DNA of 64,000 nt from a virus. Positions within the stretch are counted from its first letter, which is position 1. Each line of letters opens with the position of its first letter. Positions 1 to 12,900 of the stretch are shown here, in pieces. The DNA lies in IMG/VR virus record IMGVR_UViG_3300026488_000011, positions 96,001 through 160,000 of that record. One strand, written 5' to 3'. The position numbers were made by a program, and so were the translations under genes. Under the pieces are notes generated by a model. The model was given only the letters and a program-made list of their open reading frames with translations. It was not told where the DNA came from and did not search any database.

Positions 1-1
1 C

Positions 2-247
2 TGTTTTTACAATAATCTCTAACATGTCTAATGCTTCGATAGGTTCTATAGTCTTGTTAAGCAGATTTTTATCATATTCAAATATAGCATAGTTTATACC
101 GACTATCTTCTTCTCAACATCATCATTCGGCATGTCGGTTACAGTTACTAAGTCACTATACTCGTCCTTGAAAACATTTAATACAGTATCTAATACCTTT
201 TCTAAGGCTATTCTTCTTCTTGCTCTTAGCGCTGTCTGTTCTAACAT
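2..247 (-). CDS. Hypothetical protein, partial (runs off window start)
   Basis: ATG at 247 preceded by GAAAGGTG; open frame MLEQTALRARRRIALEKVLD... to the window edge. Confidence 0.6.
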   Translation of the reverse strand, partial: MLEQTALRARRRIALEKVLDTVLNVFKDEYSDLVTVTDMPNDDVEKKIVGINYAIFEYDKNLLNKTIEPIEALDMLEIIVKT

Positions 248-261
248 TTGACACCTTTCAT

Positions 262-639
262 TTACTTAGTTTCAGAATTAGTATCTAATTTGTTTTTTAA
301 ATAAGACTTAGATAGAAACAGTATCGTAGCGGCCTCCAGCATAGAGGCTACACTATCATACTCTTCTTTCTTCTTAGTAGACACAACGTCCTTTATGTAG
401 GTGAGTATCTCGGATAAAAACGGACAGTTTTCTAATAACAACTCAGAACCATCCACAATGATATTCTTATTATCATCGTCTTCTAAATCTTGAAATAACG
501 TAAACGCGTCTTCCATGGCGGCTAAAACTGATGCGATATTCCATGCTTTTTTCTCACCGTTTAGTTCCTTTTTATTTAAGATAATGCCCATGCCTCTTTC
601 TATCATGTTTTCATACATAATTTCTGGATTCACTTTCAT
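262..639 (-). CDS. Hypothetical phage protein (125 aa)
   Basis: ORF track; GGAGGA RBS; co-directional operon packing. Confidence 0.7.
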   Translation of the reverse strand: MKVNPEIMYENMIERGMGIILNKKELNGEKKAWNIASVLAAMEDAFTLFQDLEDDDNKNIIVDGSELLLENCPFLSEILTYIKDVVSTKKKEEYDSVASMLEAATILFLSKSYLKNKLDTNSETK

Positions 640-655
640 TCTTTCCTCCTTTTGT

Positions 656-1273
656 TTATATATTTCCTTTGTGTGGATCAGTAGGATCCTTTCCTTCTGC
701 TATTAAATCTTCAGCTATATCCCAAGCATCTTGGATTATCATCCTTTCTGATAAAGTAAATGGATTAGGACTTTCCAAGCTACAATGTGTTATTACACCA
801 TTTCCTTCTTCGTCAAATCTAAGGAACCCGTCAATTACATGGAGATAATCATCTCTCCATTCTGCAGGCACGTCTTTCTCCGGTAAATGAACTTCATCAT
901 CCCAGCCTTGCAACCTGTTATTCATATACATGTTAAACAGAGCAGGATCAGCTAGTATATACTGTCGCATCATCCAACCAGAGTTATAAATGTTATCATA
1001 ATTCACAGCGTATATCCTATCGTTGAATACAGCTGCACTATGTCTAGCAATTAATTCTTTAGCTTTGTCAATAATGGTATTATTCGTCACAGTCTGGAAA
1101 GTCTGAGTCACCCTCGCTGCAAAATCTTGTCCGTATTGTTGTACCGTTTGGATAAACTGTTGATAATTTCTTTGGAAATAATCCATAGCCCTTTGATCAG
1201 GCATAGCGTTTACCAACATCTTGCTAACAGTATTTAGCATATTTACATCATCCGCTATAATTACATTAGCCAT
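656..1273 (-). CDS. Conserved phiKZ-like phage hypothetical protein (205 aa)
   Basis: ORF with AGGAG RBS; MRQYILADP...QGWDD segment resembles a conserved jumbo-phage family (recalled, not searched). Confidence 0.65.
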   Translation of the reverse strand: MANVIIADDVNMLNTVSKMLVNAMPDQRAMDYFQRNYQQFIQTVQQYGQDFAARVTQTFQTVTNNTIIDKAKELIARHSAAVFNDRIYAVNYDNIYNSGWMMRQYILADPALFNMYMNNRLQGWDDEVHLPEKDVPAEWRDDYLHVIDGFLRFDEEGNGVITHCSLESPNPFTLSERMIIQDAWDIAEDLIAEGKDPTDPHKGNI

Positions 1274-1283
1274 TTTCTTCTCC

Positions 1284-2303
1284 TTATTTTTGCGAGATAA
1301 ACGCCTTATAGACGCGATTGGCTACCGTATCCAGAGATTCAAAAATATCTCTTAGGTAGTCGGGGACCAATAAATCTTTAAACGTTATCTCGTCTTCATT
1401 TTTTAACTTTGGTTTATTCAGAGTCATAGCTCTAATTAAATAATATATAGTTAAATAACTATTCAGTATGCTTTTCCCGTGTAAGTCTTTCATATAGTTA
1501 AGCACATACTTCGGCGTACCTTTATTTAACAGGAATTTATTTAGTAAAAGCATCCAGAACGCTAACATAACGTAATTATCCCTAATGACCGGATCTACCT
1601 CTGACTTCGATAATAATTCATCGTCTATCGTAGTACCCGATATTCCTGTAATTACTTTGTTTACTCTGTTCATTACTAGTTTCACAAATTCTACATCTCT
1701 GAGTACTATGTTAGAATTCATCTTGTTGTAAGTATCTGTAAAAGGTTTGATTTGCGGATGATTCGTCTTTAGCTTAAATAATCTCACTGATGAAATTTTC
1801 TTACCTTTTCTTTCTTCCAGAATTACTAATTTATATTCGTACTCAGAATCTATTTCTTCTATAAGGCTATAATCTATTCTCTGTGCCGTGTGCACAATAT
1901 AATAGAGAATAGAAAGAGGTTTTAATAGTTTTAAATCTTCTCTTGTAAAGCTCCTAATCTTTCTCAGAGTTTTATTGTATTCTAACACATTTTTAAGACT
2001 ATGTCCAGAAATTAGTTTACTTTTAAAATCTTTTACACAATCTCCTGAAGTCGGCTTAAAATTCCTGCATACTTCAGGCACTAGGTCTTCTGGTAATTTG
2101 CAATTTTCTCCATCTAAGAAAATACAATCTTTACTACATATATCAAACGTACCATTGTCCCATTCCTTTCTTATTACTACCAATTTTTCTCTATCAAACA
2201 GCACGGAAAAGCTCCCATTAGCTAATAAATCCGTTTCGTAATATATTTTAGCTAATTCTTGTGGTGTTAATAATGGTTGGCATTTACCGCATACACATTT
2301 CAT
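1284..2303 (-). CDS. Hypothetical protein with Cys-rich N-terminus (339 aa)
   Basis: ORF; MKCVCGKC and further Cys; abuts neighbouring genes. Confidence 0.7.
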   Translation of the reverse strand: MKCVCGKCQPLLTPQELAKIYYETDLLANGSFSVLFDREKLVVIRKEWDNGTFDICSKDCIFLDGENCKLPEDLVPEVCRNFKPTSGDCVKDFKSKLISGHSLKNVLEYNKTLRKIRSFTREDLKLLKPLSILYYIVHTAQRIDYSLIEEIDSEYEYKLVILEERKGKKISSVRLFKLKTNHPQIKPFTDTYNKMNSNIVLRDVEFVKLVMNRVNKVITGISGTTIDDELLSKSEVDPVIRDNYVMLAFWMLLLNKFLLNKGTPKYVLNYMKDLHGKSILNSYLTIYYLIRAMTLNKPKLKNEDEITFKDLLVPDYLRDIFESLDTVANRVYKAFISQK

Positions 2304-2609
2304 TTATTCCTCCTCTTCTATTTCTTCTAAACGTTTTGCTATACTTGTAAGTAAGTTAGTTATTGAGAGTATGTATTCAGACGCCATACGTTTATCTCTC
2401 CATGTGTTTTCATTATCTAATTGTTGCAGCATTGATGTTAACATATTTTGGACAATAGAAAATGCTTTTGCTAATTCTTCTTTGTTTAGTTTATCTAAGA
2501 CATGTTTTAGATTACCAGTAGCTTGTTCGAAATATAACCCTGAGACTATCTTAGATTTTACTTCATCAGTTATCTCGCCATTCAACTGTTTTTTATATGC
2601 TTCATTCAT
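2304..2609 (-). CDS. Hypothetical helical protein (101 aa)
   Basis: ORF; 4-nt ATGA overlap with upstream gene. Confidence 0.65.
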   Translation of the reverse strand: MNEAYKKQLNGEITDEVKSKIVSGLYFEQATGNLKHVLDKLNKEELAKAFSIVQNMLTSMLQQLDNENTWRDKRMASEYILSITNLLTSIAKRLEEIEEEE

Positions 2610-3235
2610 CTCTTCTCCTTCTCTATGGTTTTTACTAATAGTTCTAACAGCCTATCTACTTTAGATTTATCACCCCAGATCGCGATCATAAATTCTCCAG
2701 TTATCATAGCGTCATTATGTCTCAACACTATTTTTTCATCATGACCTATATTGTTACTAAGAATTGTGATTGTTTTCTTATATAGGGATTCTAATTTGTC
2801 TGCTCCAGTTTGTCCATATCGATCCGCAAACTCTTTTATGTTTTCGATATAGATGAAGTAAAGACCTAGCGTCATGACTTCCTCACCGTACTTTGCCATA
2901 GTGGAATTCATGATACCTGCTTTTAGTATATGCTCGCTATCTTCATTATCTTTATCAAACAGTGCTTCCGCTGACACCATAATAGGACATTCGCTCTTTA
3001 TTGCTTCGTATTCTCTATCTGATTCCAAAATTTCATCTTCGGTCCTATCTAGGATATCGAAAACGCTATCTAGTTCTTCTAGTAAATTTGTTAATTTACC
3101 ATTTGTCACAAATGTTAAACGCTCGATATTTAGCCCTGTAATGGTGCTGTAAAACGTAGCAGACGGAGTATTATCGCCAGATAATAATAAGTTGTCTACC
3201 AACCTGTTCATATTACCAAATCTCACATATCTCAT
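2606..3235 (-). CDS. Hypothetical protein with degenerate, truncated GGDEF-like C-terminal domain
   Basis: LGLYFIYIENIKEFADRYGQTGAD...R...ITGEFMIAI aligns by eye with the GGDEF pattern LxxxDIDxFKxxNDxYGHxxGD...RxGGDEFxI; catalytic residues not conserved. Confidence 0.5.
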   Translation of the reverse strand: MRYVRFGNMNRLVDNLLLSGDNTPSATFYSTITGLNIERLTFVTNGKLTNLLEELDSVFDILDRTEDEILESDREYEAIKSECPIMVSAEALFDKDNEDSEHILKAGIMNSTMAKYGEEVMTLGLYFIYIENIKEFADRYGQTGADKLESLYKKTITILSNNIGHDEKIVLRHNDAMITGEFMIAIWGDKSKVDRLLELLVKTIEKEKR

Positions 3236-3272
3236 TTCTACCTCCTTTTATTTAGTTCTTATTCTCTACTTA

Positions 3273-3280
3273 GTAATATA
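3273..3280 (-). promoter_or_regulatory. Putative early (virion-RNAP) promoter TATATTAC
   Basis: Matches the phiKZ early promoter consensus TATATTAC; variants TATATTAT/TATATAAC/TATATAAT lie 30-60 nt upstream of six other minus-strand genes. Confidence 0.55.
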
Positions 3281-3312
3281 TAGATTTATTATTCTAGAAA
3301 CGAAGAAAAAAA

Positions 3313-3337
3313 AGGTGCAGGGAGTTACCCTGCACCT
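3313..3337 (-). terminator. Intrinsic terminator after nvRNAP beta' exon 3
   Basis: 10-bp perfect stem AGGTGCAGGG/CCCTGCACCT followed by a U-tract on the minus strand; overlaps the stop codon. Confidence 0.8.
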
Positions 3338-3546
3338 AACAGCTTTCTAGCTACTGGATCGTCTTCAGGACTACGGCTATCTTCTCTCATGTGTGTAAAG
3401 TTAGATAGCGTAGCCACTGTGGTAGACGGTATATATAAGTTTTTATTAACCTTACCGTCTATGTCTATGATGTTGTAATGTGGAGAAAACTTCTTAGCTA
3501 TCTCCGCCATCTTATTATCTAGTAATATAGTAGCATTCATTTCGTC
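3325..3546 (-). CDS. rpoC: Non-virion RNA polymerase beta'-like subunit (phiKZ gp55/56.1-like), exon 3
   Basis: Starts GAC GAA ATG AAT (D-E-M-N) directly after the intron terminal G at 3547; completes NGDFDGDEMN; matches the beta' continuation DQM-type motif. Confidence 0.88.
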   Translation of the reverse strand, partial: DEMNATILLDNKMAEIAKKFSPHYNIIDIDGKVNKNLYIPSTTVATLSNFTHMREDSRSPEDDPVARKLLGAG

Positions 3547-3962
3547 CGTGATGTTCAGACAGGGTCGTTACTCCTGTCCCGCGGCATTACCCGCAGCTCT
3601 AGCTTTCACTAGAGACCAGACTATACCATCACCCTTTACCATAGGATCAATTATCCCTTAGGCAGTCGGGTGCCCTCCGTTTCGAACTCACTTGAGTCCT
3701 ACTCTACTCGGTTTTCACTATTCCGTTTCCAGAATAGCTATCCTTTCGACAGTCGTTGAACACACACCATATCCATTTGGACGTAGGTGCTTCGCTGCGG
3801 ATCGTCCTATACTAACGAGCTTTTTACTATACCATGGAGCACTCGCCTCCCCATGCCCTTATCCGGTTTCCCGGATAAGTTAGTACTCATTAGCTTCAGG
3901 ATGTCTCCGCAATTAGGAGGGTTTTTAACTAGAGTATTTCTACTCTAGGACAGCCAGTATTA
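3547..3962 (-). ncRNA. Group I intron 2 (ORF-less, IA-like, 416 nt)
   Basis: 5' splice GGT|TAA; P1 GACGGU/GCUGUC with terminal U-G; P3 CCCUCC/GGAGGG; Q GAUCCGCAGC; R GUUCAACGACUG; S GGUAUAGUC; extra helices between P7 and P3'; ends in G. Confidence 0.9.
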
Positions 3963-3971
3963 ACCGTCGAA
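3963..3971 (-). CDS. rpoC: nvRNAP beta'-like subunit, 9-nt micro-exon 2 (TTC GAC GGT = F-D-G)
   Basis: Exactly supplies the missing FDG of the DFDGD motif in frame; flanked by the terminal G of intron 1 and the U|TAA start of intron 2. Confidence 0.88.
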
Positions 3972-4383
3972 CGAGTACAATGTACTCGGACCATATCTTC
4001 ATCCCTTACCATAGGATAGATCATCCCTTAGGTAGTCGGATGCTCCCCGTTTCCCATCCAATTAGATGGTACCCTACTCGCTTTACCAGTAGTTACACTA
4101 CCAGCGGGCAGTCTTACCTTACCCTCACTATTACTATACCTTTCGGTATAGTCGCAGCTTTCGGTGGCCTCTGAACACATCCCATATCTATAAAAGACGT
4201 AGGGACTTCGCTGCGTCGATTCCGCAACACTATGACGTTTTTACCATACTCGTCGCTTCCATTACTGGGACGAGTATCATACTCGGTTTCCCGGTATGAG
4301 TGGTAGTCATAGCTTTTACACGGTTCCCGCAGTTAGGGGAGTATTTTGCTAGAGTATTACTACTCTAGGGTGACCTCGACCCG

Positions 4384-5673
4384 TTAAACTTTAACAACTC
4401 TTTTAATACCCAGAGAATCTATTATAGGTACATTTTTATCTTTTATGCAGTTAATGATGGTCTTTTGACTTACGTTAAAATGTCGAGCTGTCTCTCGTAT
4501 GCCCTTGAATTCCTTCTTTGTCCCGTCTTTAAATTCTACTAATATAGAAGTACTCCTAGAATAGTTGACTAAATTATCCATACACCACTTACCATTTTTC
4601 CATAACACCCAATCATTTATACGGTAACATTTGTCATCGTTTAGAAATTTTGCTAACTTAGCTCCGCTAATCTTTAAAAACTTTTTAGCTGGCTTTATAC
4701 CATTAAATTCTTTTACTTCACCTGTAACTAAATTTTTAACTTTCACCGGTTCTTTAGATTGTTTTTTATGTAGTTTAAATAATTCATATCTTTCATGGTC
4801 CTTTAAAACATCCAATAACATAGAATCCTTGTATAGGTAACCTTTTTCACCAGTCAATTTCCTCCACAATTTAGTCTTGTTATTATAGAACTCCAATTCG
4901 CCAGATTCTTTATTTCTAACGATTATACCCCATGGTAAATCTATTAAACTAGGATCCATAAGATACTGCCTATAACTATTGTCGTCTGCTAAATAATATA
5001 ATTCATCAGGTTCTGTCTCTGAATCAGAGGTCTTGCTAAACCAAGACGGGGTCTTCTTGTCAGATATAGTAGATTTACTTAACCCTAATATTTTACTCAC
5101 CCTGTTTAAATTACTACAAAACCAGATCCTTTTATCTAATACATTTGTTAACACATACATACCTAGCTTTAAGTTTGTTCTTGTATGTACGTTAGCAGAA
5201 TTTTGTTCCATGGTAGTCCAATGAATATTTTCTAAACGATTGTCCTTTTTATTGTTATTTTTATGGTCTACGATATAATCTGTAACAAAATCATTATTCG
5301 GCAACCATGCATATGCCATAAGGCGGTGTACTGTCGTTCTGTAGTGAGAATGTGTTTGTGTTGTGATTATGACACAATTATAACCGCTGCAATCAGATGT
5401 TTTTAATTTGGTGTTTGTTATTAAGTCATAAACATTTCCTACCTTATCTACAGCATACCTAGGCGCTATTGGGACAACAGCATATTCTTTCTTTGTTCTC
5501 ACACTGCAAAATACAACAGGCCTATCAAACATTGGTATATGTACTACTTCATACGGACCATTGCCTTGTCTTATCCTGGCAGGAACGTACTTTATGATGT
5601 TCTTTAACCACTCTAAACCTTTTGGGTATTTGTAATTCTCTGGGTATCTTATAAATTGTTTTTTGATCTTCAT
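4384..5673 (-). CDS. Intron-encoded HNH homing endonuclease with C-terminal NUMOD1/IENR1-like DNA-binding repeats
   Basis: VHRLMAYAW...DHKNNNKKDNRLENIHW HNH motif; repeats VKNLVTGEVKEFNGIKPAKKFL and EFKDGTKKEFKGIRETARHF. Confidence 0.88.
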   Translation of the reverse strand: MKIKKQFIRYPENYKYPKGLEWLKNIIKYVPARIRQGNGPYEVVHIPMFDRPVVFCSVRTKKEYAVVPIAPRYAVDKVGNVYDLITNTKLKTSDCSGYNCVIITTQTHSHYRTTVHRLMAYAWLPNNDFVTDYIVDHKNNNKKDNRLENIHWTTMEQNSANVHTRTNLKLGMYVLTNVLDKRIWFCSNLNRVSKILGLSKSTISDKKTPSWFSKTSDSETEPDELYYLADDNSYRQYLMDPSLIDLPWGIIVRNKESGELEFYNNKTKLWRKLTGEKGYLYKDSMLLDVLKDHERYELFKLHKKQSKEPVKVKNLVTGEVKEFNGIKPAKKFLKISGAKLAKFLNDDKCYRINDWVLWKNGKWCMDNLVNYSRSTSILVEFKDGTKKEFKGIRETARHFNVSQKTIINCIKDKNVPIIDSLGIKRVVKV

Positions 5674-5676
5674 TCT

Positions 5677-5710
5677 TAACTCCTTTTTAAGTACTCAGTA
5701 TAAGGAGTTA
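5677..5710 (-). promoter_or_regulatory. RBS-sequestering hairpin of the homing endonuclease gene
   Basis: UAACUCCUU pairs perfectly with AAGGAGUUA (contains the Shine-Dalgarno), 16-nt loop. Confidence 0.7.
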
Positions 5711-5749
5711 TTGTTTTAAAAAATGCTGTGTTTAACGGGTCTATAACGC

Positions 5750-6964
5750 ATCACCGTTTGGCGCTTTGATAGTCATCATGTTTACACCGATGGTCTTATC
5801 TTCGATATTAGTTTTGAATTTAGTTATATAATAGAGTTGACTAGACCCCATTAACAAGCTAGGATTCCTGTTAAATATTACAGGGATTCCTTTATAAGGA
5901 GATTCTTCTATCAACTCGTTCAGAATTTCTTCTATTACTGGATAATGCTTGTTGACGGCTTCAAAAACTAGGTTAGAAGCTTCTTTATACGTGTATCCTC
6001 TTTTTAAGAGCTTATTTATAATATGCGGTCTAAATGCAGTAGGACCTATTATCCATGGTACATGCAACACATCATAATCTTCGCTGGTAGGGAGTGAGGT
6101 GATTACCGCTCTGAAGGTAAAATGACTACGAGTACCATAGATATGTTTTCTCACCATTCCTTTTTTACCGGATAGCTTTTCTTTACTATATTTGATAAAG
6201 AGCTTAGCTATCCCGGAGATTATTTTACCTACACCATTCTCTACCTTTTTACTGTAAGGATCCATGTTTGCTAACTTTACTGCTAATAGCGATATATCGA
6301 TAACGTCTCCTAACATAGTAGTGGTATAAGCATCCTTCCCTGTTACTTCCATTACAAATAGTCTCTTATTCACTAACGGTAAATAATCTACTAGGAGTTT
6401 ATCCCTATTCCTTTTCCATTCCTCTAGCAATCTCTTGGCTTTCTTATCCTTTTTATTGGATTTAAACACAGAATTATTAGCTATATAGAGCAATATTTTC
6501 TCTATGTTATTTATAACGTTTAGATACCCCCTACCTCCTATTATATTTTTGATAGAATGGAGATATGTAGGTATCTTAGGAGGATTATAAGAAGTATCTG
6601 CTAACCAGCGTAGCCCGTCTATTCTTTTACCTAATATAGATGTGAGTTGATTCCAGAAATGCGGATTTAGGAATTTTAAATCATCCCTGAACTTCTCTAT
6701 CCATAGTAGCGGCTTTATTATGTCAAAAGCTTTCACTACAGAAGTACCGCATTTAGGACATGTCTGACCGAGTCTCCATGCACCTTTGAAATACCCGCAC
6801 TCGCATTGTGGTATGATGGAAATTTCGTCCTCGTATTGAGTAAACAACAGCTTTTTCATTTTCTCAGGTTCGACGTCGGTTATTTTAAAGTTGTTGAGAA
6901 TTAACTTACGATCTGTTTCGTGGAAATATTGATTTAGATCATTATAGTCTTGTACTATTGGCAT
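5750..6964 (-). CDS. rpoC: Non-virion RNA polymerase beta'-like subunit (phiKZ gp55-like), exon 1
   Basis: Zn-binding CECG...CPKCG; GKKGMVRKHIYGTRSHFTFRAVI (beta' GKxGRFRxNLLGKRVDYSGRSVI); FNRNPSL; ends APNGD at the splice site; spliced product 481 aa. Confidence 0.9.
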
Positions 6965-6982
6965 TCTTCCTCCTTTTGTTTG

Positions 6983-7243
6983 TTACGTGTTATAATGGTC
7001 AATTTGTTCAAATGCGTCGATTAGGCCTAAATCGAGCATTTCGTTTATGATAAGTAATAATTCATCTGCGTATTGATTAATTACTAGACGATCCTTAATA
7101 AGACGTTCGTCTAAAGTAACTACTACGCAGACATCCCTTTTACAAGGTTTTACGAAAACGCATCTAGATAAGTTTTCGGTACGTTCCATGATAAATTCAT
7201 GGATTGTTTCTGGTTCTTCAATTGTGAACAATAGGTACCGCAT
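6983..7243 (-). CDS. Hypothetical protein (86 aa)
   Basis: ORF with GGAG RBS. Confidence 0.6.
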   Translation of the reverse strand: MRYLLFTIEEPETIHEFIMERTENLSRCVFVKPCKRDVCVVVTLDERLIKDRLVINQYADELLLIINEMLDLGLIDAFEQIDHYNT

Positions 7244-7328
7244 GCAACTCCTTCAGTGTTTTAAAATTTTAAGTTATTCAGGTCGATGACCAAATTAATA
7301 ATATAAAAATAAAAAAATGTGTGATACG

Positions 7329-7356
7329 ACATAGAGGTGTAACTACACCTCTATGT
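7329..7356 (-). terminator. Putative intrinsic terminator
   Basis: 12-bp perfect stem ACATAGAGGTGT/ACACCTCTATGT overlapping the stop of 7343-7801; U-rich tract beyond. Confidence 0.65.
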
Positions 7357-7801
7357 GATTTAATCTAATTGAGACCTTTGCTCTTAGCTTAGATATCTTG
7401 CCTTGATATACTCTTACAATTTCTTCGTCCTCGAAGATGATGTACTCATCGACAACTTCGCATTCGTCTTGATCCAATATAGATAAGACTGCGTCTCTCT
7501 CGCTACCAAGACGCACACCATATACATCTACTTCGATAGCAATGGAGTAGCTGTATAGTGCGTTGTGTAGTTTATCTATTATTCTATCAGGATGCATGCA
7601 TCCTGGCTGGTAATTAACGTAAACTGTGATTTCAACCGCTAATAAATTATTATTTTCATCAACGACCTCTACTTCTTCTATCTTAACCTCCATAGGACTA
7701 ATCTCATTTTCTAGATATTCTTTTAATCCATCTATATCTAGGTTTTTATTGGTTTTGAATTCTAAAGCTCTGAACCAAAGTTGTGGATTATGCGTATTCA
7801 T
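7343..7801 (-). CDS. Hypothetical protein (152 aa)
   Basis: ORF with AGGAG RBS. Confidence 0.65.
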   Translation of the reverse strand: MNTHNPQLWFRALEFKTNKNLDIDGLKEYLENEISPMEVKIEEVEVVDENNNLLAVEITVYVNYQPGCMHPDRIIDKLHNALYSYSIAIEVDVYGVRLGSERDAVLSILDQDECEVVDEYIIFEDEEIVRVYQGKISKLRAKVSIRLNHIEV

Positions 7802-8312
7802 TTATTCTCCTTTTGTTATTTGGGTTACTGGATACTTCTTCCTTATAGTCTTCATTAAACTGATCCTTGGTTTCTTTACCTTCATCTGTGTCTACAACTT
7901 TGTCTTGTTTCATTAGGACATCAACATACTCACTTCTTAAGTCTGATAATTCCTGACTATCTTGACCGTTGTTATCTTCCAGCATTTTCCTCATCTGACT
8001 TAGCATTGTTAGTTTATGATCTAGTTCTGAGGAATCCTCATCCAGTTTAAATAATGCTGCTTTTGTTGCCGCGATGTCTAGGACCTCATTTATTAAATCT
8101 AGAGCTAGTTTATTTTTCACTTCTAGCTCTTTGATTTTGATTTTCAGCTCGCGATTCTCTTTTATGTTATTTTCAATTTCATTCGTCATATTCCAGAAGT
8201 CATCTATCAATTTACTTCTGTCTCGCTTGCAGGTATCTAATTCTTGTTCTAACCTTTCTATTAACGCATTAGCTTTGTCTACTAATGATTCTAACCACGC
8301 TACTCTATCCAT
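7788..8312 (-). CDS. Coiled-coil hypothetical protein (174 aa)
   Basis: ORF with AGGAG RBS; heptad-like charged helix. Confidence 0.65.
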   Translation of the reverse strand: MDRVAWLESLVDKANALIERLEQELDTCKRDRSKLIDDFWNMTNEIENNIKENRELKIKIKELEVKNKLALDLINEVLDIAATKAALFKLDEDSSELDHKLTMLSQMRKMLEDNNGQDSQELSDLRSEYVDVLMKQDKVVDTDEGKETKDQFNEDYKEEVSSNPNNKRRINEYA

Positions 8313-8372
8313 TTTACTCTCCTTTTTATTTAATGTTCGCTCCTATTAGTTATATATAAGTAAAAAAAATAG

Positions 8373-8402
8373 ATACTATCAGGATCTAGATCCTGATAGT
8401 AT
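8373..8402 (-). terminator. 30-bp perfect palindrome / putative terminator
   Basis: ATACTATCAGGATCTAGATCCTGATAGTAT, followed by U-tract on the minus strand. Confidence 0.7.
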
Positions 8403-9910
8403 TATAAAACTTCTATTTGTGTCATCAAAAAGTCTCCTAGGAGTTCCACTGTGGCGTAAAACGCAGCTTCACTTGGTGTAATGTTTTCACCCAGCATTTT
8501 TGTAGCATCATAACTAACAAATTTAGGATACATTGTGTTGGCTGTAAGTGTTAACATAATCTCTTTAGATGTATTTACTACATCCATCAAATCAGCTATT
8601 TGTTTATTTTCTACAATTTCAGTCACTACTTCTTTCACTATTTTTTCTCTAATATCTTCGTTCGGATAAATCTCTGACATTGCTTTACTATTCGCTAATA
8701 CACTTCTGCTTAGTATATAAATGCTCATCAGTGAGTTTCTTTCTCTCTCTTTATTTTTAACAATTAATAGTCTACCGTATTTGTTAAATATTGCTTTAAA
8801 CTCATCCTTCTTGCTTAATAAATCTTCAGCTTTTAACAATACAGATAATCGTTTTGTATCAATAGGACTTTGAGATAATTCAGATAGAGCTATTCCGTAC
8901 AATACACTATTATCGACCTTAGTTCCGTCTTCGTTTACTTTAGATAATACTGGCAATACTACAGCCACTGCGTAACCGTCCTCGCTTCTATATACATACG
9001 GTACCAGAATATTATTATTAATCATTGTTAGTAAATGTCCGTAGAGACGATTGAATCTTTTAATAGCTGCATTCATAATAGCTTCAGCCGCAGCTGCTTG
9101 TTCGGGTAAGTTAGATTTTCTTGCGTTAATGTAGATATTTCTAAGTGCAAGAATTAATAAAGCTAACATATCTAAATCAGATGCATCGGCATTATTAATC
9201 TCTTTCAATATCTCTTTAGCATCACTAGTAGATAATAAAGAATAAATGTGGTTTACCAACTCATAACTTTTAGGTATTTCGTTTAATCTATTTTTTAAAG
9301 CATTTTCTATCTCTAACTCATCCTGTTTCTCTATGCTATCGCTAAGAGACATTACGCTGTCAAACGCAAGAGGTATTCCTAATGCATCCTCTATCCTAGC
9401 ATTTGTCTCAGTGAGATAACCTCTTTCTTTTAACAACTGATATAAATAACTGTCGTCTAAGTAGAATATTTCAAAATCACTTTCAGGATCAGATGCTTCT
9501 AAGTTGCTAATACCAGCATTTACTCTCTCTACATATCTACTTAGGTCACTGTTTAATCTTCTAAAGAAGATTAGCTCTTTATAAGTTTTGTCACTAAGTC
9601 TTTTTATAATTTCATCATCTGTTAAATCAGATATTCTAGGGGTAAAGTTATTTTCGTCTATAGTATTAAAGTTTACATAATTAAGTAAACCACCTAATAC
9701 AGGTACCAATCTACCCTTACAACCAGGTTTACCACATGCTTCTTGTAACAACTGTTTCACTTTGTTTTCAACTACTACGTCTATTAGATCTTTTATGGTC
9801 TCATCAGGTAACTTAGACATGTTTTCAAATATGTCTTTTTTAAGTAAATCTTTTAACGTAAACCACTCTATCTCTTTAAGAGCAGTCTTAATTTTTCTGT
9901 TATCATACAT
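8402..9910 (-). CDS. Hypothetical protein (502 aa), probably virion-associated by position next to vRNAP genes
   Basis: Long ORF with RBS; positional analogy to phiKZ genes flanking gp178 only. Confidence 0.6.
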   Translation of the reverse strand: MYDNRKIKTALKEIEWFTLKDLLKKDIFENMSKLPDETIKDLIDVVVENKVKQLLQEACGKPGCKGRLVPVLGGLLNYVNFNTIDENNFTPRISDLTDDEIIKRLSDKTYKELIFFRRLNSDLSRYVERVNAGISNLEASDPESDFEIFYLDDSYLYQLLKERGYLTETNARIEDALGIPLAFDSVMSLSDSIEKQDELEIENALKNRLNEIPKSYELVNHIYSLLSTSDAKEILKEINNADASDLDMLALLILALRNIYINARKSNLPEQAAAAEAIMNAAIKRFNRLYGHLLTMINNNILVPYVYRSEDGYAVAVVLPVLSKVNEDGTKVDNSVLYGIALSELSQSPIDTKRLSVLLKAEDLLSKKDEFKAIFNKYGRLLIVKNKERERNSLMSIYILSRSVLANSKAMSEIYPNEDIREKIVKEVVTEIVENKQIADLMDVVNTSKEIMLTLTANTMYPKFVSYDATKMLGENITPSEAAFYATVELLGDFLMTQIEVL

Positions 9911-9955
9911 CTTATTTCTCCTTAATATCTGTTGTTATTTAATCAAACAAAAGAA

Positions 9956-9985
9956 ATCTATGACGGAATATATTCCGTCATAGAT
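9956..9985 (-). terminator. 30-bp perfect palindrome / putative terminator after vRNAP beta
   Basis: ATCTATGACGGAATATATTCCGTCATAGAT with U-tract on the minus strand. Confidence 0.7.
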
Positions 9986-12900
9986 CATTTACTAAAATAC
10001 ATCTCAGCAACTTTTTTACTTAGATGCTCCAGTAGGCCAGCAGTGGTACCCATTAGACTAGGACTGTTTACTATCCTAGCATATATAGCTCTAGCACTAA
10101 ACAATACCTCTATCTCTTCACCGTTTTCTCCTACAATAGGATAACTGAATATATCTCCTACTGTGGTTTTTAACTGGTTAGCTATAATTGCTTTATCACC
10201 AGTACCCATATTCGATTCCACTAAGATATAGAACTTAATTTCTACCTTACCTTCATCCAGTGGCTTACCTTCTATAGAATAACTGCTATCTACTCTACCT
10301 GTGAATTTCCTATTAGTCTTAGGATCTATTAAATTCTTCTCTGTTTCTTCTACTAATTTTCTAATAGATTCAGACAGTTGTTCTTTTTCACAATTATAGA
10401 ACACCTGTATCTTAATTATCTTACCTTTTATCTTAGCTTTAGGTGTAGTCTTAACAAAACCTTGTAAAATGTCCAGAGCCTCTTCTGTAAGTTTACCATC
10501 GTCCATTATTCCAGTATTAATCATTAATAACGCTGTAGATGGCTCTACGCTATCTCCTACATTTAATACGTTTACTATTTCTTCAGTAGCATCCAGGACT
10601 ATGCTTCTGGATTTCACATATTGTATTTTAGCCTTATTTGCTAACTTGCTGCTTATAGCACAACTATCCTCATACGTTTCATTAAGCTCCATTAAAGCTG
10701 TTCTCACTGTTAAGTATGGCTTATAAGTTACCTTAGTAGGATCGAAGATATCTGGTTCGAAGAAACTACTATCGTAATAAATTACATCTCCTTCTTTTAC
10801 CTTTTGATCTTTAACCACATTAGGTTTTAAAACATGTAAGTAACTAGTATTGGATTCTTCTTTACTAGTCCAATTCGAATAAACAAAAGTTTCTTTTTTA
10901 CCGCTTTTGTATTCTACCACTATTTTATTCCTACTTACTTGTTTTACTATACCATCTTTTTTAGCGAATCCTATAAACTTTTTATCTAACCTGTAAGGAA
11001 GTACTGAATCATACCCTGTTCTAACTGGATATACAGATCCGTTTATTAATGGAAGTACATGTGAATTTTGTACGTTAATAAAGTTAAGTCTCTTTGAATC
11101 ATCGGTAGTGCTAAACGGTGCTAGAAGAGCACTGGTACTTAATACATTAGCAAAATCTATTTCCTTTAACTCACCTTTCATTCCTCTTAGGTTTTTAATC
11201 ACAGGATTCGCTGATAGATACGCTGAAATACCTACGTCACCTGAGTCCTTATGTCCTTCAGATATCACTCCTATATCATCAGGATGTAATTCTCTAGTAC
11301 CCTTACTCATGGATTCTTTTTTTCTACCTTGGAATCCTATATAGGTAACGTCTTCTCTCTCTTTTAAGTAGATTAGAGGATTTGTATCGTCTAATAAAAT
11401 ACTAGCACTATCTTCGTTTAAGAGTCTCCAGACAATATATGGATCTAAGTTCAATCTACTCCTACCAAAGAACTCTTCATTCTTTTTCTGTCTTATCGCT
11501 TCTACCATTTTGGAATACACCATCTGAGGTACTTTCTCATAGCCTCTAATCACATACCCCTTCATGCTTTGTGGATGTAGATAGAAATCATTTACTAACA
11601 TCTCATTAGCCCTCAGTAAGAGTCCTGTAAACGTAGTAGGTTCTTTCATTTGTTTCAATACGTTGGCAGTTACTGGATCGACATAGAGATCATCTAACAA
11701 TTGTATCTCTGTAATACTGTTTAAAGGTAAGCCTATGTCTTTAAAAAACGCTAACATCATTTCGCGACTGTTAAAAGTGTCTAGCGGTAGATCTTTTGTT
11801 ATCTTAGGAAAGTGATTCAAACCTTCAAACAACATGATGTGTTCTGGTTTATCCCAATACACTACCAATGTCTCAAACTTAGTTTTAAATACGGTAGCAT
11901 TCTCCGGTTTTAGATTTTTTCTACCCTCCAGAATATCATATTTTACTCCTAGCATCTTTAGTAAGTTTTCTAAGCCTAGATAATAAGACAACATAAACAC
12001 TGTCGGAATATAGTTTTTATAAATTTTAACTAAACTATACTCATTCACGAGTTTAGTTTTGTCTATCGGGACTATGTTGTAGAAGTTATCTAACTTCTTC
12101 ATAGTCTTATCATAGACATATAAGTCATTACTCTGATTTATGAATAGAGGTTTATCATTTCTACTACCACATAAAACATACTTACCGTTTTCTTCTAATT
12201 TTTCTAATTCGATACCTAATTTGTCTGCGAATAAGTCCCTATTAGGATAATCAAAATCAAACAACATATCCTTATACACGTATGATTTAATAAATCTCAT
12301 ATGCAGAGAATAGACTTCTGGTAGTATGACATCAGGTACGTGTACTTCTCCTAACACTAAGTTTTTTATCTTACCAGATTCTTGTAACTTTAATAATTGC
12401 TTTTTTAGACTATATCCTGCGTTTAATTTCATGTATGGGGCTTTATCTATAAACAGTTTGCCATATGCACTACTTAATGCTACTCTATTATAAGCGATCT
12501 TTTTTATTGGCAAGTCGGATCTTTGTTTTCTAAGCACATAACCGTTACCGGACATTTTATACTGTCCGTCTTCATCTATCTTAGGAATTTTAAACTTTAC
12601 CTTATGAGTACCTTTGTTTATATCCGTGAATACAATCTCATATTCTTCATAATCTCCTAAGATGTTTCCGTTTTCTACTCTATTAAGTTCTTTTATTACC
12701 ATCCCTCCTCTCTGAAGAGAGAATATTGTACGAGCTATATCTTTCTTAAGTACCTCTCTTATGTACTTTCTGTCGAAAGCTCCTATTGTATCCTCCAATG
12801 CTTTTTTATCAGGCATTATCTTTACATCAGGTAGTTTTTTATCTTTTTCAGTTATTTCTACTTCTTTATCAGATATAGTTAAGTAATCTTTTAACGGTTT

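Follow-up and report, generated by a model that had tools for sequence, protein, structure and literature searches.

We analysed a window of 64,000 nucleotides (nt) of DNA from an uncultured giant phage (positions 96,001 to 160,000 of the IMG/VR record IMGVR_UViG_3300026488_000011), in which the gene for a β′ subunit of RNA polymerase (RNAP) is interrupted within the codons of its active site. The NGDFDGD motif is the Mg-binding catalytic loop of RNAP, and here the codons for its three aspartates lie on three separate exons, the middle one being a micro-exon of nine bases; the coordinates and the alignment with homologues agree on this point. The β′-N gene has very probably been invaded twice by group I introns, and its transcript would be spliced to encode a 481-amino acid (aa) subunit with the sequence NGDFDGDEMN.

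All features described here are on the minus strand, and positions are those of the window. Exon 1 (5750..6964) starts at 6964, behind a strong ribosome-binding site, and comprises 405 codons, ending with AAC GGT GAT (N-G-D), the last of which specifies the first catalytic aspartate. The micro-exon TTCGACGGT (= UUCGACGGU; TTC GAC GGT, 3963..3971) encodes F-D-G with the second catalytic aspartate, and exon 3 (3325..3546; 73 codons and a stop) begins with GAC GAA ATG (D-E-M), the GAC codon providing the third. An earlier note on this DNA had placed the end of exon 1 at 5750, the island at 3971–3963 and the start of exon 3 at 3546, and all of its coordinates and sequences were reproduced when the minus strand was reread. 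It had also claimed that the joined exons form one reading frame; translation indeed gave 481 aa with a single, terminal stop, reading ...KAPNGDFDGDEMNATILLDN... across the junctions and carrying NGDFDGDEMN. The listing of open reading frames (ORFs) contains only a 407-aa product (5741–6964) and a 71-aa orphan (3325–3540), so that the spliced gene is missed by ORF callers, as the note had said. The 407-aa call is truncated because the frame meets a stop soon after the AAC GGT GAT at 5750.

Exon 1 matched phiKZ gp55 (PDB 7OGP_A; E=1.9e-54, residues 4–405), AR9 gp270 (7S00_d; E=7.9e-10) and phrog_2987 (E=2.1e-96), and it is also homologous to cellular β′. The comparison with phiKZ and AR9 had been suggested in the earlier note, and both matches bear out its identification of the gene. 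Based on the homology with phiKZ gp55, AR9 gp270 and cellular β′, the gene is taken to encode the β′-N subunit of the phage's own multisubunit RNAP; its best match alone points to the non-virion rather than the virion enzyme. The spliced product was then compared with homologues that have no intron. Those of two cultured phages, FLC9 gp381 and AgentSmith_102, aligned without gaps across both junctions, including the 70 residues that follow the motif, and the metagenomic homologue P0006 reads KAPNGDFDGDELN, matching the spliced product. Exon 3 aligned with the C-terminal parts of the intronless homologues, while tblastn with exon 3 alone, which is too short and divergent for such a search, gave no match. 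Megablast of the whole locus against cultured phages also gave no match. The subunit is single-copy, as no second copy was found in the 185,491-bp genome to which the window belongs (the IMG/VR record, with terminal repeats).

At the 3′ end of the gene, a terminator-like hairpin (GGUGCAGGG/CCCUGCACC) with a T run behind it was read directly from the sequence at 3305..3336. The stop codon of exon 3 lies within the loop of this hairpin, with the T run after it.

A nine-base exon could in principle be a coincidence of reading. From codon degeneracy, the chance that a random 9-mer between the terminal G of one intron and the first base of the next ribozyme would encode F-D-G is approximately 6e-5. 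Chance is not credible, because of this low probability and because the identical 9-mer (9/9) recurs in the related locus L004, of which the exon-1 protein is only 67% identical.

Next, the two intervening segments were assessed as group I introns. Intron 1 (3972..5749, 1778 nt) carries an ORF in its P1 loop, and its ribozyme core, from P2 to P9 including the P7 pseudoknot, was located at 3972..4368 by Rfam and covariation. Intron 2 (3547..3962, 416 nt) is ORF-less. Both end with a G (G3972 and G3547, respectively), and each has a 6-bp P1 with a U-G pair at the predicted 5′ splice site. In intron 1, GGUGAU (5755–5750) pairs with the guide GUCACC (4374–4369), the U-G pair being U5750-G4374; in intron 2, GACGGU (3968–3963) pairs with the guide GCUGUC (3954–3949), the U-G pair being U3963-G3954. 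Each guide is positioned directly upstream of a conserved P2 hairpin. The two cores are 74% identical, and among the introns sampled each is the best non-orthologous match of the other.

A search with the Rfam group I model RF00028, proposed in the earlier note, supported one intron fully and the other in part. Intron 2 scored 79.3 bits (E=1.1e-19) over the full model (1–253), well above the gathering score of 50. The core of intron 1 remained below it, with 41.8 bits (E=2e-9) when 461 nt were scanned alone and 28.2 bits in the genome-wide scan. A sub-threshold score is expected for intron 1, because the 5′ strand of its P1 is 1.3 kb away, beyond the span of the model. No other group I match was detected by the RF00028 scan of the 185,491-bp genome.

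To evaluate the structures independently of Rfam scores, we aligned a small sample of five sequences, namely, both introns, the L004 copies of both and the intron of another related locus, L032 (two close pairs plus one). RNAalifold returned 91 pairs; three that clash with P7 were removed and the 5-bp P7 pseudoknot was added by hand, giving 93. Over these 93 pairs, 95.4% of cells were paired, compared with 32–40% when the partners were slid by 1–3 columns, and compensatory double changes occurred in 40 of the 93 pairs, compared with 4–10 in the slid controls. The observed values were reached by none of 500 shuffles on four of five measures and by a single shuffle on the fifth. Double changes were found in four of the six pairs of P3, and the comparison of intron 1 with intron 2 alone gave double changes in P3, P6, P7 and P8. 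Selection on both predicted ribozyme structures is evident from this covariation. The group I introns that the earlier note had described, with U-G-terminated P1, P3 and P7 pairing and a terminal G, were thus recovered by the splice-site pairings and by covariation, and by Rfam with a sub-threshold score for intron 1. Group I introns of subgroup IA, the phage type, have extra hairpins, P7.1 and P7.2, next to the 5′ strand of P7, between P7 and the 3′ strand of P3. Covarying hairpins (helices 11–13) were found in this interval and are candidates for these elements.

These results bear on the question of whether the gene is intact. If one or both introns no longer spliced, the 407- and 71-aa ORFs would be remnants or separate polypeptides. 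Such decay would agree with the calling of two separate ORFs, the 71-aa one with an ATG of its own, with the score of the intron 1 core under the Rfam gathering score, and with the division of jumbo-phage RNAPs into several subunits (PMC7598289). However, the FDG codons would be untranslated from an unspliced transcript, and the 407-aa product, ending in NGDAL, would be devoid of the catalytic loop. The covariation indicates selection on both ribozyme structures, the genome has no second copy of the subunit, and the arrangement is kept in L004, which has diverged to 67% protein identity. We therefore consider decay extremely improbable, and a pseudogene was ruled out by the covariation and the single-copy evidence.

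Intron 1 appears to be the mobile partner of the pair. The ORF in its P1 loop (4384..5673) encodes a 429-aa putative homing endonuclease with Pfam HNH_3 (33.3 bits; cut-off, 24.8) and NUMOD1 (38.6 bits; cut-off, 22.8) domains; it is distantly related to I-HmuI (1U3E, E=2.6e-4) and matched phrog_59 (E=2.7e-23). With the ORF of the intron at the same site in L032 it shares 28% identity (E=6e-29). The intronless target context for this endonuclease would be ...AACGGTGATTTCGACGGTGACGAA.... The loop that contains the ORF is closed by a 12-bp stem of perfect complementarity, formed by GACCCGUUAAAC (5720..5731) and its partner at 4378–4389. The stem, which brings the 5′ splice site of intron 1 next to the guide, was recovered when the P1 region was folded for minimum free energy, and 11 of its 12 bp are kept in L004. 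A second, 9-bp hairpin (5677..5710, from a fold of 5712–5660) sequesters the Shine-Dalgarno sequence of the endonuclease ORF (GGAG, 5683–5680), and its complementary arms are also kept in L004. This hairpin resembles the translational masking of the intron endonuclease genes of T4.

The guide region of intron 1 (4369..4389) contains, in order, the 3′ arm of the 12-bp stem (4389–4378), a P10 guide GUCGAG (4380–4375) and the P1 guide GUCACC (4374–4369). The P10 guide can pair with bases 1–6 of the micro-exon (UUCGAC). In L032, which has one intron at the site after NGD, the corresponding guide GUUAUA pairs with the 3′ exon UAUGAC, with two compensatory changes. The P10 guide therefore covaries with the 3′ exon; this independently supports the placement of the 3′ splice site for intron 1 and, with it, the micro-exon as a real exon. 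A single large intron from 5749 to 3547 was also considered and rejected, because it would delete FDG and ignore the complete ribozyme 3′ end that abuts the micro-exon.

Taken together, these data suggest that two related group I introns invaded the N-G-D-F-D-G-D codons of the Mg-binding loop, nine bases apart. Intron 1, after NGD, would be a mobile intron with an I-HmuI-like HNH/NUMOD1 endonuclease gene that is looped out of P1 by the 12-bp stem and has its ribosome-binding site masked by the hairpin; homing would be driven by this endonuclease. Intron 2, after FDG, is an ORF-less intron at the site occupied in AR9 g270. Each ribozyme is predicted to fold after transcription, to have its 5′ splice site set by the 6-bp P1 ending in U-G, to attack with an exogenous G and to ligate after its terminal G. 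We infer that both introns are spliced in vivo, leaving an mRNA that reads NGDFDGDEMN.

Several observations weigh against this reading. In addition to the score of the intron 1 core below the Rfam gathering threshold (41.8 and 28.2 bits against 50), the P10 of intron 1, on bases 1–6 of the micro-exon, and the P1 of intron 2, on bases 4–9, overlap on GAC. Since 12 nt would be needed and the exon has nine, the two helices cannot both be fully formed at once. No convincing P10 for intron 2 was found in the splice-site pairing analysis. Moreover, removal of intron 2 creates the junction GGU-GAC, which pairs with the guide of intron 1 at −8.1 kcal/mol, compared with −6.8 kcal/mol for the true P1. 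This GGUGAC may act as a decoy; it is a perfect Watson–Crick complement of the guide, in which C-G replaces U-G at the would-be cleavage site. Because of the pairing overlap, the absent P10 of intron 2 and the decoy, efficient and accurate double splicing is not self-evident.

The pairing overlap and the decoy could be viewed as functional. The ribozymes would then be forced into a fixed order of splicing or a hand-over of the micro-exon, the output of active polymerase would depend on RNA folding conditions, and the pair, instead of being purely selfish DNA, would act as a switch for timing or quality. We regard this as unlikely. If true, mis-ordering or skipping would give an in-frame, catalytically dead β′ (NG-DEMN).

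Skipping of the micro-exon would also be the main outcome if the two ribozymes cooperated, or if intron 2 used a distal 5′ splice site, so that intron 1, the micro-exon and intron 2 left as one unit. The main product would be a dead NGD-DEMN or NG-DEMN protein, perhaps a regulator. The two cores are 74% identical; such similarity has been proposed to allow cooperative skipping in Twort and has been shown to do so in engineered tandem Tetrahymena introns (PMC10136302). In addition, the guide of intron 2, GCUGUC, pairs at five of six positions with AACGGU in exon 1 (−3.8 kcal/mol, compared with −6.0 kcal/mol for the true site), and use of this alternative site, 3 nt upstream of the intron 1 splice site, would give the in-frame dead NG-DEMN. 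Skipping, however, would cost a single-copy gene, expected to be essential, two of its three Mg-binding aspartates, and L004 has kept the micro-exon together with the splice-site pairings of both introns. The P10 guide of intron 1 tracks the micro-exon, and four of the six positions differ between the two guides, a design that favours exon inclusion (PMC10136302) and that fits selection for inclusion. Predominant skipping thus appears very unlikely, and the spliced 481-aa subunit remains the preferred product.

To determine how common such insertions are, we surveyed the 120 closest protein clusters (P0001–P0120) homologous to 5741–6964, taking stop positions from the called ORFs. Full-length proteins were present in 50 clusters, 49 of which have N-x-D-x-D-G-D followed by x-x-N; P0005 is the exception, with a divergence immediately after DIDGD. 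In the other 70, the protein ends within the catalytic loop or shortly before it, at no fewer than six positions: after NxD in 18, after DxDG in 15, after DxDGD in 12, after Nx in 11, between NRN and P in 11 and after DxD in one, the position being unclear in two. These counts are approximate, because the motif can be imitated by the first one or two residues read beyond a splice site. On this survey, the approximately 21 bases that encode N-x-D-x-D-G-D, together with the nearby NRNP codons, are a dense hot spot of apparent intron insertion. Four of the stop sites fall at equivalent points of a quasi-repeat, (N/D)-G-D. With such a quasi-repeat, a single guide sequence might be usable at two sites.

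In the related loci for which DNA could be compared, the 9-nt cassette was also present in one relative (L004/L008/L030), and further arrangements with very short exons were identified. In another relative (L009/L010/L031), two introns with Rfam support (45.7 and 41.6 bits) flank an 11-nt, phase-shifted exon, TTGATGGTGAT (L009 3036–3046; locus 2208–3527). In L009, neither a convincing P1 guide for the first intron nor a clean one for the second was found; accordingly, this 11-nt exon rests on the reading frame, the terminal G of each intron and the two separate Rfam matches. An apparent truncated ORF remnant is also present in the first of these introns. L011 and L035, which are the same contig (L011 7096–10850), have three introns, between NRN and PSLL, after NMD, and after a 12-nt exon, TTTGATGGAGAT (10211–10222); the exons between them are 114 and 12 nt long, and the last intron has a clean P1 (GGAGAU/GUCUCC). 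Two introns separated by a 126-nt exon were found in L016, single introns at various sites in L018, L019, L032, L044, L047 and L049, and many alleles are intronless. In L021 (7240–10344), an insert of 3.1 kb with two ORFs (489 and 289 aa) separates DFDG from ELNF. No Rfam group I match was obtained for this insert and the third aspartate codon was not located in it, which could mean that the exon is very small or that the insert is of another type. With 9-, 11- and 12-nt cases in relatives and a 13-nt case in the phage Goslar (see below), the micro-exon arrangement is recurrent.

Comparison with L004 provided information on the history of the cassette. Nucleotide identity was 64–67% in the exons, 84% in the HNH ORF and 94–96% in the ribozyme cores, with sharp steps at the exon–intron boundaries; at the protein level it was 86% for the HNH endonuclease and 67% for exon 1. 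The simplest reading is that the block of intron 1, micro-exon and intron 2 entered one of the two lineages after their divergence. As a point against this, the high identity of the cassette could be due in part to structural constraint rather than to recent transfer. Although no endonuclease is encoded in intron 2, the homing site of intron 1 is only 9 nt away, so that co-conversion would carry intron 2 along; it would thus travel with intron 1, and the pair would move as one cassette. The mutual best match of the cores is compatible with duplication of an intron to the neighbouring site, with the limit that introns at the site after DxDG are poorly sampled. The L004 introns themselves were recognized by alignment: no group I intron was reported when the full 10-kb L004 locus (1–10338) was scanned with Rfam by E-value, despite approximately 95% identity to introns scoring 79 and 42 bits. 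This miss, probably an artefact of the speed filter, is a warning for automated intron surveys.

Alternatively, the two introns could derive from separate site-specific lineages, one for the site after NGD and one for the site after DxDG as in AR9, which invaded independently; the cassette would then be neither duplicated nor co-mobile, and intron 2 would be an immobile relic. Each of the two sites is used elsewhere by a single intron, and here they are occupied together. The site after NGD holds in L032 a homologous intron and HNH gene with no second intron, the site after DYDG holds in AR9 an intron with its own HNH gene, and stops after NxD (18) and after DxDG (15) are frequent among the homologues. 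On the other hand, the cores of introns 1 and 2 are the closest non-orthologous relatives among the introns sampled, a comparison in which introns at DxDG sites are few, and relative to L004, conservation is uniformly much higher from intron 1 through intron 2 than in the exons, which fits joint transfer. Independent invasion is a serious possibility, although we judge it somewhat improbable; invasion by two related introns that would move together is the reading followed here.

The closest known counterparts are in the same gene family. In the Bacillus phage AR9 (GenBank KU878088), g270 is annotated as a two-piece join with the HNH homing endonuclease gene g271 inside the intron. Its junction is placed between GDYDG and DVLN, exactly at the site of intron 2 (D-x-D-G before D), and its P1, GACGGU/GCCGUC, is nearly the same as that formed here with the guide GCUGUC. 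AR9, however, has one intron with the ORF in it and no micro-exon, whereas here the intron at that site is ORF-less and its neighbour carries the endonuclease. The phiKZ gene 55/56/56.1 encodes the orthologous β′-N of the non-virion RNAP, and chain A of PDB 7OGP is a fusion of PHIKZ055 and PHIKZ056.1. Its single intron lies between KAPN and ADFDGD, two codons upstream of intron 1, so that all three aspartate codons are on one exon, unlike the situation here. A phiKZ-like genome has a group I intron in the same loop (81.1 bits), the 3′ end of which resembles that of intron 2. The statement of the earlier note that single introns occur in phiKZ-like RNAP genes is thus borne out by the 7OGP fusion and the two-piece join of AR9 g270.

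With regard to the short exon, the nearest parallel is orf142 of the Staphylococcus phage Twort, where highly similar group I introns, 2 and 3, flank a short exon and the same question of inclusion or skipping arises; the gene described here is of this type, with two homologous introns (74% core identity) around a 9-nt exon. As summarised in PMC10136302, the Twort exon has 23 nt and leaves room for separate P10 and P1 helices, whereas in the 9-nt exon these two helices would have to share 3 nt. The two cases also differ in host gene and in the position within a catalytic motif. The same source describes exon skipping between similar tandem group I introns in Twort orf142 (23 nt), Coxiella 23S ribosomal RNA (34 nt) and engineered Tetrahymena pairs, in the last of which inclusion is favoured by differentiated splice-site recognition (PMC10136302).

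A further case was identified in the cultured Escherichia phage Goslar (MK327938; L059 166500–171100, minus strand), in which the same gene and motif appear to contain two introns flanking a 13-nt island, CGACGGTGACGCT. Exon 1 ends with ...GAC TT and is followed by an Rfam-annotated intron with a NUMOD1/HNH ORF; CGACGGTGACGCT is preceded by G and ends with T, and after approximately 340 nt the frame resumes with ATG AAC.... The insertion points, within DF in phase 2 and after DGDA, are unlike those described here. The first Goslar intron scored 46.9 bits with Rfam, and the second boundary was placed by the reading frame and the terminal G only. The GenBank record lists one Intron_gpI non-coding RNA, a NUMOD1-HNH protein and the separate hypothetical proteins Goslar_00188 and Goslar_00185; no paper describing the arrangement was found.

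Side-by-side introns are also known from organelles: Ophiostoma cob-201 has two group IB introns 18 nt apart, and rnl-576/577 has group II introns 1 nt apart (PMC12308204). The introns around organellar mini-exons are likewise adjacent and self-splicing, with exons too short for gene finders, and are explained by independent neighbouring invasions (PMC12308204). They differ from the present case in being mitochondrial, in belonging to other intron subgroups and endonuclease families, and in lying outside an RNAP active site.

Group I introns in jumbo-phage RNAP genes (bioRxiv 10.1101/2020.12.14.422802; PMC12350094) and phage genes with several introns (PMC7886860) have been reported previously, as have short exons between tandem introns, in Twort (PMC10136302) and in mitochondria (PMC12308204). 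Full-text searches, with most subscription papers outside their reach, returned no description of micro-exons in the phage RNAP catalytic motif or of the insertion hot spot. The earlier note had taken the assembly of an active site through a three-codon exon to be probably undescribed in phages. For an RNAP micro-exon, none described was found in the papers searched; uniqueness does not hold, given the 9-, 11-, 12- and 13-nt cases in relatives and Goslar and the published 23-nt exon of Twort. Judged from the sequences, we regard the arrangement as real and as a very compact example of a behaviour already known from selfish introns, neither a new category nor unique to this genome.

The finding is useful for annotation and for intron mechanics. 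A polymerase subunit that should be essential is reported by gene finders as a shortened protein plus an orphan ORF, with the three-codon exon overlooked; roughly half of the closest homologues are misannotated in the same way, as is Goslar in its GenBank record. Short exons between tandem introns have so far been studied only with the 23-nt natural exon of Twort and engineered Tetrahymena tandems. Intron and homing endonuclease elements mediate competition between co-infecting jumbo phages (PMC11620839). The cassette described here appears to be much younger than its host gene, and the locus is suited to the study of endonuclease–intron pairs that compete for, and share, one invariant target.

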